Program-made: the position numbers and the translations under genes
Source of the DNA: Escherichia coli
GTDB taxonomy: Bacteria > Pseudomonadota > Gammaproteobacteria > Enterobacterales > Enterobacteriaceae
DNA: 64,000 nucleotides
Direction: 5' to 3' (one strand)
Assembly (NCBI RefSeq): GCF_048403405.1
Contig: NZ_CP183129.1
Shown here: positions 26,980 to 33,052 of the stretch, piece after piece
How positions within the stretch are numbered: position 1 is the first letter of the stretch
How the letters are laid out: the number at the start of each line of letters is the position of its first letter
The notes under the pieces: generated by a model
The model's database searches: none
Seen by the model: the letters and a program-made list of their open reading frames with translations, nothing else
Told to the model about the DNA's origin: nothing

Positions 26980-27711
26980 GTGGCTTATTACAGCATTGGT
27001 GATGTTGCTGAACGTTGCGGGATTAATCCTGTCACTCTCCGGGCCTGGCAACGCCGCTACGGTTTGTTAAAACCACAGCGCAGTGAAGGCGGACACCGAC
27101 TCTTTGATGAAGAAGACATACAACGCATCGAAGAGATCAAGCGTTGGATAAGTAATGGCGTCCCTGTAGGCAAAGTTAAAGCATTACTGGAAACCACCAG
27201 CCAGGATACGGAAGATGACTGGAGCCGCCTGCAAGAAGAGATGATGTCAATTCTTCGTATGGCTAATCCTGCCAAACTACGCGCGAGAATTATTTCACTG
27301 GGTCGAGAGTACCCAGTAGATCAATTGATTAATCATGTTTACCTTCCTGTTCGCCAGCGTCTCGTGCTTGATCACAACACCTCCCGCATTATGAGCAGTA
27401 TGTTTGACGGCGCATTAATTGAATACGCAGCAGCCTCGCTTTTCGAAATGCGCCGTAAGCCCGGTAAAGAAGCCATTCTGATGGCGTGGAATGTTGAAGA
27501 GAGAGCACGATTGTGGCTGGAAGCATGGCGTTTATCATTGTCAGGATGGCACATTTCTGTTCTTGCTGATCCCATTGAATCGCCGCGCCCGGAACTGTTC
27601 CCGACGCAAACATTGATTGTCTGGACAGGCATGGCACCAACGAGAAGGCAAAACGAACTTTTACAACACTGGGGTGAGCAAGGTTATAAAGTCATCTTTC
27701 ATGCCCCCTAA
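26980..27711 (+). CDS. bluR: MerR-family repressor BluR (YcgE)
   Basis: 243-aa [59 protein letters not shown] (MerR HTH). Confidence 0.85.
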
Positions 27712-27931
27712 TTTCACCTTTATCCCGCCCCTTAGACAGAATCTTATAATCTGAACCCACAACAGCGTTTGCACCGGAGCTGGTCCGTTGCAAAATGCTC
27801 ACCGGGAGAATTCAGGTAATCCCCCTTTCACACTTTGTACATATCACAGCCAAAGGACAGACCAGATTGAAGTGGTAAAACCGATCGTGCACACTACGCA
27901 GTCTCACAACTAACAAGAGGTTATTATCCTG

Positions 27932-28336
27932 ATGGATCAGGTTGTTGTTTTTCAAAAGATGTTTGAGCAAGTGAGAAAAGAGCAAAACTTCTCCTGGTTT
28001 TATTCAGAATTAAAACATCACCGTATTGCACATTACATTTATTATCTGGCTACGGATAACATCAGAATTATTACTCACGATGACACGGTTTTGTTATTAA
28101 GAGGAACCAGGAACCTGTTAAAAGTTAGTACGACCAAGAACCCTGCTAAAATAAAAGAGGCCGCATTGCTTCATATTTGCGGAAAATCAACATTTCGGGA
28201 ATACTGTTCAACACTGGCAGGCGCGGGCGTTTTCCGGTGGGTTACTGATGTTAATCATAACAAACGCAGTTACTACGCCATTGATAATACGCTTTTATAT
28301 ATTGAAGATGTAGAAAACAATAAACCATTAATCTAG
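27932..28336 (+). CDS. ycgX: YcgX (DUF1398-family)
   Basis: 134-aa ORF recognised as YcgX; neighbour of bluR and iraM. Confidence 0.7.
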   Translation: MDQVVVFQKMFEQVRKEQNFSWFYSELKHHRIAHYIYYLATDNIRIITHDDTVLLLRGTRNLLKVSTTKNPAKIKEAALLHICGKSTFREYCSTLAGAGVFRWVTDVNHNKRSYYAIDNTLLYIEDVENNKPLI

Positions 28337-29038
28337 CTAAAGTTGGAAGCTTAAGAAATGCTTCATAATTCAGTAAGGCATTAGCATAATGGAAATAAAA
28401 GTGCAGAGACTATCCCTATGGATGATATATACTATCTTTTTATTGCCACCCATAAATAATCACCAGGCCAATACTATCAAATTGATATTTGAAATGTGAT
28501 TACTTGACTTTCTATAAGTTATTTTATAACGGTTAACAAATTTATAAAACCAACGGGCGTGCCATACGCCCGTTTCAATACTTAACGCACATGTGTTTTG
28601 GTTTAGTCATCATCCGGTTATATGTATTTTAGCCAGGAATGGGTTAAACCATTCCTATATAACTAAAAAATTGAAACCTTATTCTCATGTCATGCTTATA
28701 TTCGTCATTATCGTTATATAAAAAGGCCAACCATAATGTTTAGCAAATTGGCACAAAGTAGTATAAAGGCTATGTTTTAATTACAGGATGTTCAGTCATT
28801 TGAATGTATAACATTTTAGCTAAACAAATCTAAAACGAAGTGAATAATTTAATGTTTTCACTAAATCTCATTTTGTTTAATATCTATTGAGATTTCTTGC
28901 TTTAAATTTTGCTTTATATAAACAATGGTTTTAATTTTTGATTAATTTGTTTTTTGGGGAGTAATATACACATATGCAAAGTCAAGAAATGAACATCCAA
29001 ATGAACTATATTAAGCACCGTGGGATAAGACATAACAA

Positions 29039-29362
29039 ATGAAGTGGATAGTAATTGACACGATAATTCAACCTACATGCGGCATATCTTTTTCAGCCAT
29101 ATGGGGTGATATGAAAATGATCATCTGGTATCAATCTACTATATTTCTCCCTCCTGGCAGTATATTTAAACCGGTTAAATCTGGTATTATCTTTAAGGAT
29201 AAAGAATACCCTATTACTATTTATAATATCGCACCATTCAACAAGGATTTATGGATTTTACTCAAAAGCAGTCAAGAGTGTCCTCCAGGAGAAAGCGAAA
29301 TAACAAATAAATGTTTACATAATAGTTGTATTATAAAAATATGCCCATATGGACTCAAGTAA
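29039..29362 (+). CDS. iraM: Anti-adaptor protein IraM (RssB inhibitor; PhoPQ-regulated in K-12)
   Basis: 107-aa [46 protein letters not shown]...; strongly AT-rich gene and upstream region. Confidence 0.8.
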
Positions 29363-29464
29363 TGGGCTTCATATAAATATGCTCGACATGCTATTAATAA
29401 TATCCACATAAATAAAACAACGGGCGTGTTATACGCCCGTTTCATTATTTAACACATGTAGAGA

Positions 29465-30715
29465 TTACATGTTCTTGATGATCGCATCACCAAACTCGCT
29501 ACATTTCAGCAATTTAGCGCCTTCCATCAGACGTTCGAAGTCATAGGTTACGGTCTTGGCGTTGATTGCGCCTTCCATACCTTTAACAATCAGGTCTGCG
29601 GCTTCAGTCCAGCCCATATGGCGCAGCATCATCTCAGCGGAGAGAATAATAGAGCCAGGGTTAACTTTGTCCTGACCGGCATATTTCGGCGCAGTACCGT
29701 GGGTGGCTTCAAACAGGGCGCATTCGTCACCGATGTTTGCGCCTGGGGCGATACCGATACCGCCGACCTGTGCAGCCAGAGCGTCAGAAATGTAGTCACC
29801 GTTCAGGTTCATACAGGCGATAACATCATATTCAGCCGGACGCAGCAGGATCTGTTGCAGGAATGCATCAGCAATCACATCTTTAATGACGATCTCTTTG
29901 CCGGTATTCGGGTTTTTAACTTTCAGCCACGGGCCGCCGTCGATCAGTTCACCGCCAAACTCTTCACGCGCCAGCTGGTAGCCCCAGTCTTTAAACGCGC
30001 CTTCGGTGAACTTCATGATGTTGCCTTTGTGCACCAGGGTCACAGAGTCACGATCGTTAGCAATTGCGTATTCGATCGCGGCACGGACCAGACGTTTGGT
30101 GCCTTCTTCAGAACACGGCTTAATACCGATACCGCAATGTTCCGGGAAGCGAATTTTCTTCACGCCCATCTCTTCACGCAGGAATTTAATCACTTTCTCG
30201 GCGTCGGCAGAGTCAGCTTTCCATTCGATACCCGCATAAATGTCTTCCGAGTTTTCACGGAAGATAACCATATCGGTCAGTTCAGGATGTTTAACCGGGC
30301 TTGGGGTGCCCTGATAGTAACGTACCGGACGCAGGCAGATGTAGAGATCCAGTTCCTGGCGCAGGGCAACGTTCAGAGAACGAATACCGCCACCAACCGG
30401 AGTGGTCAGAGGGCCTTTAATGGCAACGCGATATTCACGAATCAGATCAAGGGTTTCAGCAGGCAGCCAGACATCCTGACCATAAACCTGTGTGGATTTT
30501 TCACCGGTGTAAATTTCCATCCAGGAGATTTTACGCTCGCCTTTATAGGCTTTCTCGACTGCAGCGTCGACCACTTTCAGCATGGCTGGGGTTACATCTA
30601 CACCGATTCCATCACCTTCAATGTAAGGGATAATCGGATTTTCAGGAACGTTGAGTTTGCCGTTTTGCAGGGTGATCTTCTTGCCTTGTGCCGGAACAAC
30701 TACTTTACTTTCCAT
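29465..30715 (-). CDS. icd: NADP-dependent isocitrate dehydrogenase
   Basis: 416-aa [49 protein letters not shown]...; full-length. Confidence 0.95.
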
Positions 30716-30886
30716 TCACCTCTCCTTCGAGCGCTACTGGTTTGCTCGTCTGCCACCACGTTGCATATGCGTTTGCGTCCTGCGATACGGATGCATTAGA
30801 GCAATTTTTTGTTAATGATTTGTAATTGGCTTGTCAATACTACCCTATTGTTTGCCGTCATGAAAGATGCGCGTTATTAGGCTATA

Positions 30887-30937
30887 ATGCGGCAATTCAT
30901 AATCTCTGAAAATACCATGCAAAAAACTTCTTTTAGA
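30887..30937 (+). pseudogene. Displaced 5' remnant of rluE (first ~17 codons) separated from the gene body by ~1.5 kb of inserted DNA
   Basis: Reads ATG CGG CAA TTC ATA ATC TCT GAA AAT ACC ATG CAA AAA ACT TCT TTT AGA = MRQFIISENTMQKTSFR, matching my recollection of the K-12 RluE N-terminus; frame then diverges into nonsense and stops at 31030; an 11-bp motif cttcttttaga recurs at 32439-32449 inside the functional rluE. Confidence 0.45.
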
Positions 30938-31176
30938 CCAAAGACAGTATTTTTCAGACCTTCAAATAAGGCATTAAATATCAATAAGTTACACCAGTTT
31001 TTAAGCAATAAAAAAAACCACCAGAGATAACTAACAGGATGCTATTTGGTCAAAATTTGACATTACTCGACTCAGCGACTATCTCACTTTGAGCACTATT
31101 GGGAAAATTATCAAAAGTCATGGTTGAAGCGACAAGCAACGAGTAAATTATGGCATCCCCCCTTTTTGAGGTTCAC

Positions 31177-31263
31177 ATGAAACGCTTTGCACTGATAGCT
31201 GTGAAACTCGTTGCCTTTACTGGTTCTGCATCTGCTGCAACCGAAGAAATCAACTTCAAGTAA
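31177..31263 (+). CDS. Micro-ORF (28 aa, MKRFALIAVKLVAFTGSASAATEEINFK) preceding the two-gene module
   Basis: ATG 6 nt downstream of gagg; signal-peptide-like hydrophobic core; below 60-aa track cut-off, read directly from sequence. Confidence 0.3.
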   Translation: MKRFALIAVKLVAFTGSASAATEEINFK

Positions 31264-31296
31264 CAGAAACACTATATAACAATGGAGTGTTGACAA

Positions 31297-31746
31297 ATGG
31301 ATACTACCGAAGAACGCAATGGAACATATTTCTACAGAGGACACCCGAACCTGTCCAAAATAGAACTACTCAACGTCATATTCCTTGAAGAATTCTGTAA
31401 GGAATTGGGGATTGATTCGGTATCAGGTGCAGCAATCTTATCTGGTCAACCGTGGCTGGGTACAAGAGCGAAGCCGCAAGGGGCAACCCTGGGAACAAGT
31501 GTTGTCTCAAAGTATGCGCGTATACTGATGAGAGATGCACGCATGCCTTTTGGTATTTCTGTTCATACACCAGTGGGTGTAAGGATGCAGAAATCTAATA
31601 AGCTTGCTGCAATTATCGCTCGTTGGGTCCCGTGGATTGGTTGGGCTTCACTGTCGATGAGTCTTTACAGGGTTTCGACTCGTACCCAGGAAAAATACAA
31701 TCTGATTGCCAAACCTCAAGACCGTATTAAGTGGACTTCCTTCTAA
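31297..31746 (+). CDS. Hypothetical protein (149 aa) with C-terminal hydrophobic segment; first gene of islet module
   Basis: ORF in track; RBS ggag 9 nt upstream; C-terminal predicted helix LAAIIARWVPWIGWASLSMSLY; no family recognised. Confidence 0.55.
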   Translation: MDTTEERNGTYFYRGHPNLSKIELLNVIFLEEFCKELGIDSVSGAAILSGQPWLGTRAKPQGATLGTSVVSKYARILMRDARMPFGISVHTPVGVRMQKSNKLAAIIARWVPWIGWASLSMSLYRVSTRTQEKYNLIAKPQDRIKWTSF

Positions 31747-32081
31747 TGGCGACAACAATCACAGACGAAGTTTTAGCACTGTTCCGTGATGAGATTCCAG
31801 GTTATCAGGATGACCACGGGAAGGAAATTCCGTTAGAACTGGACTCTGATTTGTTCGACTATCCACGAGATGATTTAGAGGACGCTATACGGAAATACAA
31901 AGAGAGGTTTGGGATTAACCTGGATAATCTGGACTGGTCTTTGTACCTTCCATGGGAGTCTGCACCATTGCTTCAACGATGGTTCAAGCTCAAGCGGGAA
32001 GAGGTAGAAACAACACGTTTACCGTTAACTGTACGGATGTTTGCAGAATCAGCAGAAGCGGGAAAATGGCTGTATCAGTAG
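31746..32081 (+). CDS. Hypothetical acidic protein (111 aa); second gene of islet module, translationally coupled
   Basis: Start ATG overlaps stop of upstream gene (TAATG); Asp/Glu-rich N-terminal half (DEIPGYQDDHGKEIPLELDSDLFDYPRDDLEDAI); track ORF begins 5 codons earlier at 31731. Confidence 0.55.
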   Translation: MATTITDEVLALFRDEIPGYQDDHGKEIPLELDSDLFDYPRDDLEDAIRKYKERFGINLDNLDWSLYLPWESAPLLQRWFKLKREEVETTRLPLTVRMFAESAEAGKWLYQ

Positions 32082-32401
32082 AATAAAAAAGAAGGCTGCG
32101 ATGCCCCTCTTATTACTGCTGATGATGGTAGTGGTAAAGCATCATCCTGAACTTGAACAGTGAAGTGCTGTCACCCATCAGTAATACAGAAACACTATTT
32201 TTCATACCAGTATTTATTCAATTCATCAATGTAAAATGTGTTCATTGGGCCATATTTATCACCATGCAGCCACACAACCGCTGCTCACTAACCCAGGTAT
32301 TGATGAAACCGCGCTGAAGAGCCTGAACCCTGAACCTCTAACGAGTACCTTAAAAGTCCAATGCAATCCGACACTGTGCTACCCTCTGCGTATAGCTCTA
32401 T

Positions 32402-33052
32402 TTGGAATTTACCATGAAATACTTTAGCGATTCTAAATCTTCTTTTAGAAAAAAACAGGTTAGTCGACTAAACTCGCAACACTCCACTAAGCGTAAACCT
32501 GAAAACCAGCCCACGCGCGTGATCCTGTTCAATAAACCCTACGATGTTCTTCCGCAGTTCACCGATGAAGCCGGACGCAAAACATTAAAAGAATTCATCC
32601 CGGTTCAGGGCGTTTATGCAGCAGGTCGTCTTGACCGCGATAGCGAAGGGTTACTGGTGCTGACCAATAACGGCGCGTTGCAGGCGCGTTTAACCCAGCC
32701 GGGTAAACGCACCGGAAAAATCTATTATGTGCAGGTGGAAGGTATTCCCACACAAGACGCACTTGAAGCCTTGCGCAATGGCGTAACCTTAAATGATGGC
32801 TCTACCCTGCCCGCAGGCGTAGAGCTGGTTGACGAACCCGCGTGGTTATGGCCGCGGAATCCACCAATTCGTGAACGCAAAAGTATTCCCACCAGCTGGC
32901 TGAAGATCACCTTATATGAAGGACGTAATCGCCAGGTGCGCCGCATGACCGCCCATGTTGGTTTCCCCACGCTGCGACTGATTCGCTATGCGATGGGTGA
33001 TTACTCTTTGGATAATCTTGCCAACGGCGAATGGCGAGAAGCGACAGATTAA
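32402..33052 (+). CDS. rluE: 23S rRNA pseudouridine synthase RluE with non-K-12 N-terminus
   Basis: 216-aa ORF; ...[61 protein letters not shown] (RsuA/RluE fold); first ~30 residues differ from the K-12-like remnant at 30887. Confidence 0.85.

Follow-up and report, generated by a model that had tools for sequence, protein, structure and literature searches.

The stretch of DNA analysed here (64,000 nucleotides of contig NZ_CP183129.1, assembly GCF_048403405.1; hereafter the window) is Escherichia coli chromosome, with bluR, ycgX, iraM and icd to one side and rluE, nudJ, mnmA, hflD, purB and phoPQ to the other side of an interval that holds two open reading frames (ORFs) on the same strand. 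The interval between icd and rluE is an accessory islet of 1,497 bp (30938..32434) that is absent from K-12. Gene 1 (31297..31746, plus strand) starts with ATG and encodes a basic protein of 149 amino acids (aa) and 16.8 kDa with an isoelectric point (pI) of 10.0; a Shine-Dalgarno motif, GGAG (31284..31287, plus strand), can be read from the sequence 9 nt 5' of this start codon. Gene 2 (31746..32081, plus strand) encodes an acidic protein of 111 aa, 13.2 kDa and pI 4.49. The stop codon of gene 1 (TAA, 31744-31746) and the start codon of gene 2 (ATG, 31746-31748) share one base in the junction TAATG. In 100%-identical E. coli genomes, the NCBI Prokaryotic Genome Annotation Pipeline (PGAP) calls the same two coding sequences with the same 1-nt overlap and names them 'STM2901 family protein' and 'DUF1493 family protein', respectively. 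These coordinates and calls confirm the two overlapping ORFs described in an initial annotation of this DNA. The contrast between a basic first and an acidic second product also holds, as does the acidic character of the N-terminal half of gene 2 (16 Asp or Glu against 7 Lys or Arg, pI 4.2).

Gene 1 matches the NCBIfam model NF045926 (STM2901_fam) over residues 8-142 of 149 with 156 bits (cutoff 110, E 5.7e-46), and its homologs carry the precomputed Pfam assignment PF26636, which is DUF8209. A Pfam-A scan of gene 1 with a Pfam set that lacks PF26636 returned only a spurious match to KELAA (E 0.012). Gene 2 matches Pfam PF07377 (DUF1493) with E 1.3e-29 over residues 4-110, corresponding to model positions 3-107 of 108. 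Because of these two profile matches, both ORFs are, as judged from sequence, real far beyond chance. The hydropathy profile of gene 2 contains no hydrophobic segment and hence no apparent signal peptide or membrane span, for which reason we take the protein to be cytoplasmic. Gene 2 had been likened to small domain-of-unknown-function proteins that resemble acyl carrier proteins (ACPs). This assignment stands at the family level, since the protein is a DUF1493 member, but the similarity to ACPs itself is not significant. Chains of ACPs in the PDB were matched at E 0.63-0.84 only, and hhalign against E. coli AcpP gave a probability of 0.2%. In addition, the serine of the motif LELDSDL, which aligns by eye with the ACP attachment serine, varies among Ser, Tyr, Thr, Phe and Asp across DUF1493.

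All close homologs of gene 1 come from Enterobacterales and are stand-alone proteins with a length of about 149 aa. Among 1.84 billion representative proteins, a profile search recovered 404 relatives, many of which are long proteins that carry the domain at their extreme C-terminus. In eight of ten long matches tested, the RHS repeat-associated core (TIGR03696) was found above cutoff upstream of the DUF8209 domain; some of the long proteins contain YD repeats, and matches to the RHS and YD-shell families of Pfam agree with this assignment. Other long forms have lipoprotein-like or cysteine-rich N-terminal regions in place of Rhs. Since the N-terminal regions vary among the long forms, DUF8209 is a modular domain that has been joined to different delivery regions. 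In Rhs polymorphic toxins, the toxic tip is defined by its position directly after the Rhs core. Gene 1 itself matches only the toxin-domain model and neither RHS nor TIGR03696. By its domain content, it is not an Rhs protein but one that would work like the C-terminal toxin of an Rhs protein (Rhs-CT). AFDB50 lists further DUF8209 members from Burkholderia, Paraburkholderia, Paracidovorax and Pseudomonas savastanoi.

A second context emerged from the gene neighbourhoods of the family. In Citrobacter, a homolog with 68% identity to gene 1 lies 12 nt 3' of a gene for a type VI secretion system (T6SS) Hcp protein (T6SS_HCP) and is followed by DUF1493; this triad forms a three-gene insert between yajR and cyoE. 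We scanned one genome per species (49 loci, all Enterobacterales) and scored DUF8209 and DUF1493 with hidden Markov models and Hcp with phmmer. DUF1493 follows DUF8209 directly in 48 of the 49 loci, and the exception is cut by a contig end. A full-length hcp gene on the same strand ends 6-13 nt upstream of DUF8209 in 26 of the 45 intact pairs, and in six further loci, hcp lies no more than 2.5 kb away in a different arrangement. The hcp-DUF8209-DUF1493 triad recurs in distant assemblies with 55-62% GC. One locus of 66% GC (L058, 5865-6323) consists of a DUF8209-DUF1493 pair without hcp, followed by a Tai4 T6SS amidase immunity gene; by its gene content, this locus looks like a small immunity/effector islet.

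The order of the genes is also recognizable in what appear to be decayed copies. Two toxin'-'DUF1493 fusions (P0056 and P0064) are decay products that keep the adjacency, and the only Hcp-DUF8209 'fusion' seen (P0170, 139 aa) seems to have arisen by deletion. In about 42 other E. coli genomes, all that is left is an hcp'-'DUF1493 deletion remnant, and in several species frameshifted toxins stand beside an intact DUF1493 gene (L041, L048, L052 and L054). In the one remnant that we inspected (L064, NZ_CP121149.1, 8789-9111), the neighbouring DNA belongs to an integrative/mobilisable element and encodes a His-Xaa-Ser (hxsABCD) radical-SAM system. Two Mangrovibacter loci (L037 and L038, ~1200-9100) contain several hcp, DUF8209 and DUF1493 units and fragments within a few kilobases, which suggests, from the gene order, that alternative or decayed effector-immunity cassettes are arrayed there.

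The three genes of the triad diverge at different rates. Across the 26 triads, mean pairwise identity is 0.83 for Hcp, 0.64 for the toxin and 0.54 for DUF1493, which is the fastest-diverging of the three. Among loci with Hcps that are more than 85% identical, toxins share 46-99% and DUF1493 proteins 23-98% identity. Pairwise identities correlate between toxin and DUF1493 with a Spearman coefficient of 0.78 (0.81 when controlling for Hcp), between toxin and Hcp with 0.73, and between DUF1493 and Hcp with 0.36. A conserved carrier combined with a fast-diverging and co-varying cassette is the signature of effector-immunity pairs; we regard these correlations as supportive rather than decisive, because shared ancestry inflates such values.

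Most likely, gene 1 encodes an antibacterial toxin in free-standing form that belongs to the DUF8209/STM2901 family, and gene 2 encodes the cognate immunity protein in the cytoplasm, so that the two would form an effector-immunity pair of the T6SS/polymorphic-toxin kind. This interpretation follows from the two contexts described above, because DUF8209 occurs as the C-terminal tip of Rhs proteins and as part of an hcp-toxin-DUF1493 operon in most related species. In the usual form, the pair would follow hcp as the last two genes of a three-gene operon, hcp-toxin-immunity. The 17-kDa toxin would be loaded into the ring of its cognate Hcp and fired by the T6SS into neighbouring bacteria, where its site of action would be the cytoplasm or the cytoplasmic face of the inner membrane. 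This site is suggested by the cytoplasmic gene 2, since neutralisation would have to occur there. The acidic DUF1493 protein, made by translational coupling, would bind and block the basic toxin and protect the producer and its kin. The same toxin domain would also be delivered as the C-terminal tip of Rhs proteins. We infer toxicity, neutralisation by binding, Hcp loading, secretion and the site of action alike. With 16.8 kDa, no delivery domain and an hcp gene directly upstream in relatives, gene 1 agrees with the properties of the small cargo effectors that travel in the Hcp lumen. This class is established, and Tse2-Tsi2 is its archetype; work by Silverman and colleagues from 2013 (Mol Cell) reportedly makes a protein of 16.8 kDa compatible with such transport. 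The initial annotation had proposed a toxin with a tightly coupled neutralising partner. The Rhs tips and the hcp operons support this idea in the form of an effector-immunity pair, but not in the form of a classical toxin-antitoxin (TA) module or of a known phage-defence system.

Several observations weigh against this interpretation. In the literature, we found no experiment on toxicity, secretion or binding for any DUF8209 or DUF1493 member. Functional studies of DUF8209/STM2901, DUF1493 or STM2901-2905 were not found either, and the same is true for a link to T6SS or Rhs. Neither the islet nor the rest of the 64-kb window contains an hcp, vgrG or PAAR gene. The one carrier genome inspected, CFSAN061763, has a complete T6SS at aspV, which speaks for the interpretation, but the two Hcps of this system are only 29-30% identical to the module-type Hcp. 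Export from the E. coli copy is therefore doubtful, given that toxin and Hcp co-vary. Comparison of a moderate-quality model of gene 1 with the PDB gave no match to its fold and hence no functional analogy. The ORFs 3' of two Rhs-DUF8209 proteins (L003, ~6370-6758, and L004, 1253-1669) share mutual homology (31% identity, E 8e-20) but match no Pfam family, and hhalign against DUF1493 gave a probability below 2%. We thus rejected DUF1493 as a universal partner, since the ORFs downstream of the Rhs-fused forms are not detectably DUF1493; by position and mutual similarity, they are candidates for a second immunity family for DUF8209. Finally, the plasmid and phage copies described below also fit a TA- or defence-like role.

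The E. coli pair is an orphan cassette on a horizontally acquired islet, without its hcp. DNA homology to the loci of other species begins exactly at the ATG of gene 1, and we rejected an hcp remnant upstream of this position for lack of any tblastn signal. A DNA search with the module-type hcp matches 1,356 E. coli genomes, counted regardless of whether they carry the islet. In the inspected carrier genome (L066, NZ_CP042899.1, 14232-18732), the Rhs element core gene of the aspV T6SS cluster is annotated as frameshifted. A non-cognate carrier may export the pair in E. coli; alternatively, the pair may mainly provide immunity to the DUF8209 toxins of neighbours, or may be maintained as an addictive pair. 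One version of the second option is that the islet is kept only as an immunity island against Citrobacter, Enterobacter and other DUF8209 attackers, with gene 1 as a non-exported and decaying passenger. We consider this version unlikely, if still realistic. The missing cognate hcp and the different type of the carrier's own Hcps speak for it, as do the hcp'-'DUF1493 remnants that are all that other E. coli retain and the frameshifted toxins beside intact DUF1493 genes. Against it, gene 1 is intact, has a good Shine-Dalgarno motif and is 99-100% identical across ~370 genomes, and the copy in an Escherichia sp. (97% DNA identity) is unbroken as well; moreover, intact pairs without hcp are common in other genera, suggesting maintenance.

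The distribution of the pair on mobile elements bears on a different explanation. Homologs occur on 153 plasmids, including a plasmid-borne Salmonella copy with 66-68% identity, and the P2-like Erwinia phage EtG, a true phage, carries a DUF8209-DUF1493 pair (EtG_24/EtG_23; L057, 4001-4761) on the opposite strand between its tail-fibre-assembly and tail-sheath genes. We take this position to be that of the P2 Z/fun moron, a defence hotspot. PHROG families exist for both proteins. These copies, together with the absence of hcp in E. coli and an architecture in which a small basic protein is followed by an overlapping acidic partner, would suit a chromosomal TA or abortive-infection module whose toxin is kept inside the cell and freed from a labile acidic partner upon phage infection or loss of the locus. 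Such a module is decidedly unlikely in our view. Neither protein matches a TA family in NCBIfam or Pfam, gene 2 is recognized only as DUF1493 and has no DNA-binding antitoxin domain, and the toxin gene comes first. A PADLOC-DB v2 scan was empty for both proteins at E <= 1. The initial annotation's comparison with toxin-antitoxin pairs and two-gene phage-defence modules is therefore not supported as far as classical TA systems and known defence systems are concerned. Above all, the Rhs C-terminal tip and, in most species, the hcp operon point to export and not to self-intoxication. An apparent 'Escherichia phage' match also proved to be something other than phage cargo. Apart from an e14-like prophage, the record in question, vB_EcoM-689R6, also covers flanking host DNA from icd to hflD, and we rejected a phage origin of the E. 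coli copy on this basis. A defence-like role nevertheless stays alive as a lead, because a P2-like Erwinia phage carries the pair.

Simple hydrophobicity scales do not support a membrane anchor in gene 1. The hydrophobic stretch LAAIIARWVPWIGWASLSMSLY, which had been read as a helix at the end of a membrane-anchored protein, covers residues 103-124 of 149 and is followed by 25 polar residues. Its best 19-residue window reaches 1.24 on the Kyte-Doolittle scale (usual threshold ~1.6), and the summed Hessa value is +5.3 kcal/mol; the family medians are 1.47 and +5.95 kcal/mol. The stretch also contains the family-invariant Arg109 and the near-invariant Pro112. Because of this weak hydrophobicity and these two residues, these scales predict no transmembrane anchor; the stretch is also not the C-terminal end of the protein. 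Within the same C-terminal region, the motif GR..P..GW..L.YD....Y (residues ~108-140, window ~31618-31716) matches 32 residues (765-796) of a phage tape-measure protein, PDB 8vjh_Q, with E 2.4e-4. PHROG scans of the motif matched no tape-measure family, and for this reason we keep the tape-measure similarity of the C-terminal helix as a lead only. The likeness could reflect chance similarity between hydrophobic helices or a shared membrane-insertion element.

These features could also be read to mean that gene 1 is an integral 'phage membrane protein', holin-like or superinfection-exclusion-like, with gene 2 as an ACP-like accessory and no toxin system at all. Some family members do bear the database names 'Phage membrane protein' or 'Membrane protein', and both the tape-measure match and the weak ACP matches of gene 2 (E ~0.6) would fit. 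Even so, we regard this explanation as very improbable. The hydropathy values lie below transmembrane thresholds, with an invariant Arg and a Pro inside the segment; only one true phage carries the pair; the ACP similarity is not significant, the by-eye-aligned serine being variable; and the Rhs fusions and the linkage to hcp would be left unexplained.

If, as we propose, gene 1 is an effector, its mode of action is not obvious from its conserved residues. Across 60 diverse family sequences, Thr67, Ser68, Ser71 and Arg109 are invariant and Leu24, Gly38, Gly50, Pro112 and Gly115 nearly so, and no Asp, Glu, His or Cys is conserved. This absence disfavours the usual chemistry of nucleases, proteases, lipases and ADP-ribosyltransferases. 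An AlphaFold2 model of gene 1 (mean predicted local distance difference test score, pLDDT, 69; predicted template modelling score, pTM, 0.54) consists of an N-terminal beta-hairpin, three helices, a second hairpin and a C-terminal helix of 35 residues; confidence is low for the loop of residues 49-67, the most conserved one. Because none of the four residue types is conserved across the family, we tentatively favour, though with little confidence, non-enzymatic membrane perturbation by the long C-terminal helix as the toxic action. A broader and rather improbable idea is that DUF8209 is a non-enzymatic toxin of novel fold that serves as cargo of Hcp, Rhs and phages alike, and that in contexts without hcp, such as the E. 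coli islet and EtG, the pair has been re-purposed as an intracellular abortive-infection or addiction module, with the partner as an ACP-like decoy inhibitor. In that case, a single toxin family would be used for killing between bacteria as well as for defence against phages.

The islet that carries the pair differs from its surroundings in composition (36-46% GC, the flanks having 50-54%). Of 5,426 complete E. coli genomes, 374 (~7%) carry it, nearly all at 99% identity or more, and it also occurs in an Escherichia sp. at 97% DNA identity. BLAST homology to K-12 stops at 30937 and resumes at 32435, with the two flanks overlapping by 15 bp of K-12 sequence. This overlap corresponds to an imperfect 15-bp direct repeat (repeat family D4) that brackets the islet and lies within the 5' end of rluE: the left copy, AAAACTTCTTTTAGA, occupies 30923..30937 and the right copy, AAATCTTCTTTTAGA, occupies 32435..32449, where K-12 homology restarts. 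The original 5' end of rluE is stranded on the left side as a 47-aa ORF (30887..31030, plus strand) that encodes MRQFIISENTMQKTSFR and then runs into islet DNA; we take its first 17 residues to be the N-terminus of K-12 RluE. A promoter scan placed a site resembling the native rluE promoter at 30860-30888, ahead of this stranded ORF. The present rluE gene (32414..33052, plus strand; repeat families D4 and D6), as called by PGAP in an identical genome, takes its first codons from the right end of the islet, where the rluE start region is repeated in diverged form (32405-32419, compared with 30908-30922). In carrier strains, rluE and nudJ may thus be transcribed through the islet or from inside it. 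As for its origin, this arrangement could result from a single-crossover insertion or, conversely, from the loss of the islet by deletion between the repeats in strains like K-12.

Between the stranded rluE end and gene 1, a 28-codon ORF (31178..31264, plus strand) encodes MKRFALIAVKLVAFTGSASAATEEINFK, which resembles a Sec signal peptide (ASA|A) followed by eight residues. This ORF may be the stump of a donor gene for a periplasmic protein or may encode a small leader peptide. It shows no homology to the hcp genes of other species, and ON470584.1 contains a 37-aa version with the annotation 'hypothetical'. Directly 3' of gene 2, a GC-rich hairpin (32092..32107) scored as a terminator-like element of the minus strand, and it may work in both directions. 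An Rfam scan of the islet gave zero matches. To the left of the islet, icd is intact and adjoins no e14 prophage (window 26980-30715). In the otherwise identical genome CFSAN061763, two IS200C copies flank iraM; judged by position offsets, these copies are apparently missing from the window.

DUF8209/STM2901 and DUF1493 are catalogued families that are officially of unknown function, whereas effector-immunity systems as such are well known. If our interpretation is correct, both families would gain a testable role as a new family of type VI/Rhs antibacterial effectors and their immunity protein. They are spread over Enterobacterales and high-GC assemblies, DUF8209 also over Rhs proteins of other lineages, and they occur on chromosomes, on the 153 plasmids and in a phage. 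The same role would explain the Salmonella genes pigA-D beside the pathogenicity island SPI-1, for which we know of no function assigned since they were named. Since the toxin conserves neither acidic residues nor His or Cys and resembles no structure in the PDB, it could kill in a new way. The E. coli islet may decide the survival of its carriers, about 7% of the complete genomes, against Citrobacter- or Enterobacter-type attackers in the gut.

Comparison with known systems places the pair among several types of two-gene modules. With type II TA systems, it shares two small overlapping genes for a basic and an acidic protein on horizontally acquired DNA. Unlike these systems, it matches no TA family, has no DNA-binding domain, has the toxin gene first, and contains a domain that is common to exported Rhs toxins and linked to hcp.

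The pig genes of Salmonella are the closest namesakes. STM2901, the source of the NCBIfam family name, is pigA, which lies beside SPI-1 (PMC7232297). The genes pigA/pigB and pigC/pigD (STM2901/2902 and STM2904/2905) are listed there with no adjacent hcp and no known function (PMC7232297). The four genes probably represent two STM2901-family/DUF1493 pairs. Gene 1 meets the NF045926 model named after STM2901, but the Salmonella genes lie in the invH-pphB region instead of between icd and rluE, and they form two pairs that are interrupted by insertion sequence (IS) elements.

Rhs C-terminal toxin/RhsI immunity systems are said to have been described by Koskiniemi and colleagues in 2013. DUF8209 occupies the exact Rhs-CT position after the TIGR03696 core, and a small conserved ORF comes next. 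The E. coli protein differs from these toxins in that it has its own Met start and lacks YD repeats, an Rhs core and PAAR. It also contains a conserved N-terminal beta-hairpin (MDTTEE.NGTYFY) that is missing from the Rhs-fused subfamily, and the ORFs 3' of the Rhs forms could not be recognized as DUF1493.

In Enterobacteriaceae, orphan hcp islands and 'Hcp-ET' modules were reportedly described by Ma and colleagues in 2017 (Virulence). As in these islands, the triads found in relatives have hcp outside the main T6SS cluster, followed by toxin and immunity genes, with polymorphic cassettes behind a conserved Hcp. In contrast to Hcp-ET proteins, the DUF8209 toxin is encoded by a separate gene 6-13 nt after hcp and not as a C-terminal extension of Hcp, and the E. 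coli copy lies in a window without any hcp.

The most similar architecture may be that of Tse2-Tsi2 from the H1-T6SS of Pseudomonas aeruginosa, which, according to reports by Hood (2010), Li (2012) and Silverman (2013), combines a small, Hcp-dependent effector that acts in the cytoplasm with a small, acidic, cytoplasmic immunity protein. In both cases, the toxin measures ~16-18 kDa, has no delivery domain and exhibits a biochemical activity that is not obvious from sequence; for the DUF8209 toxin, the carrier would likewise be Hcp and not VgrG or PAAR. In both cases, too, the gene directly downstream encodes a small, acidic immunity protein without a signal peptide, a role that in the E. coli islet would fall to gene 2.

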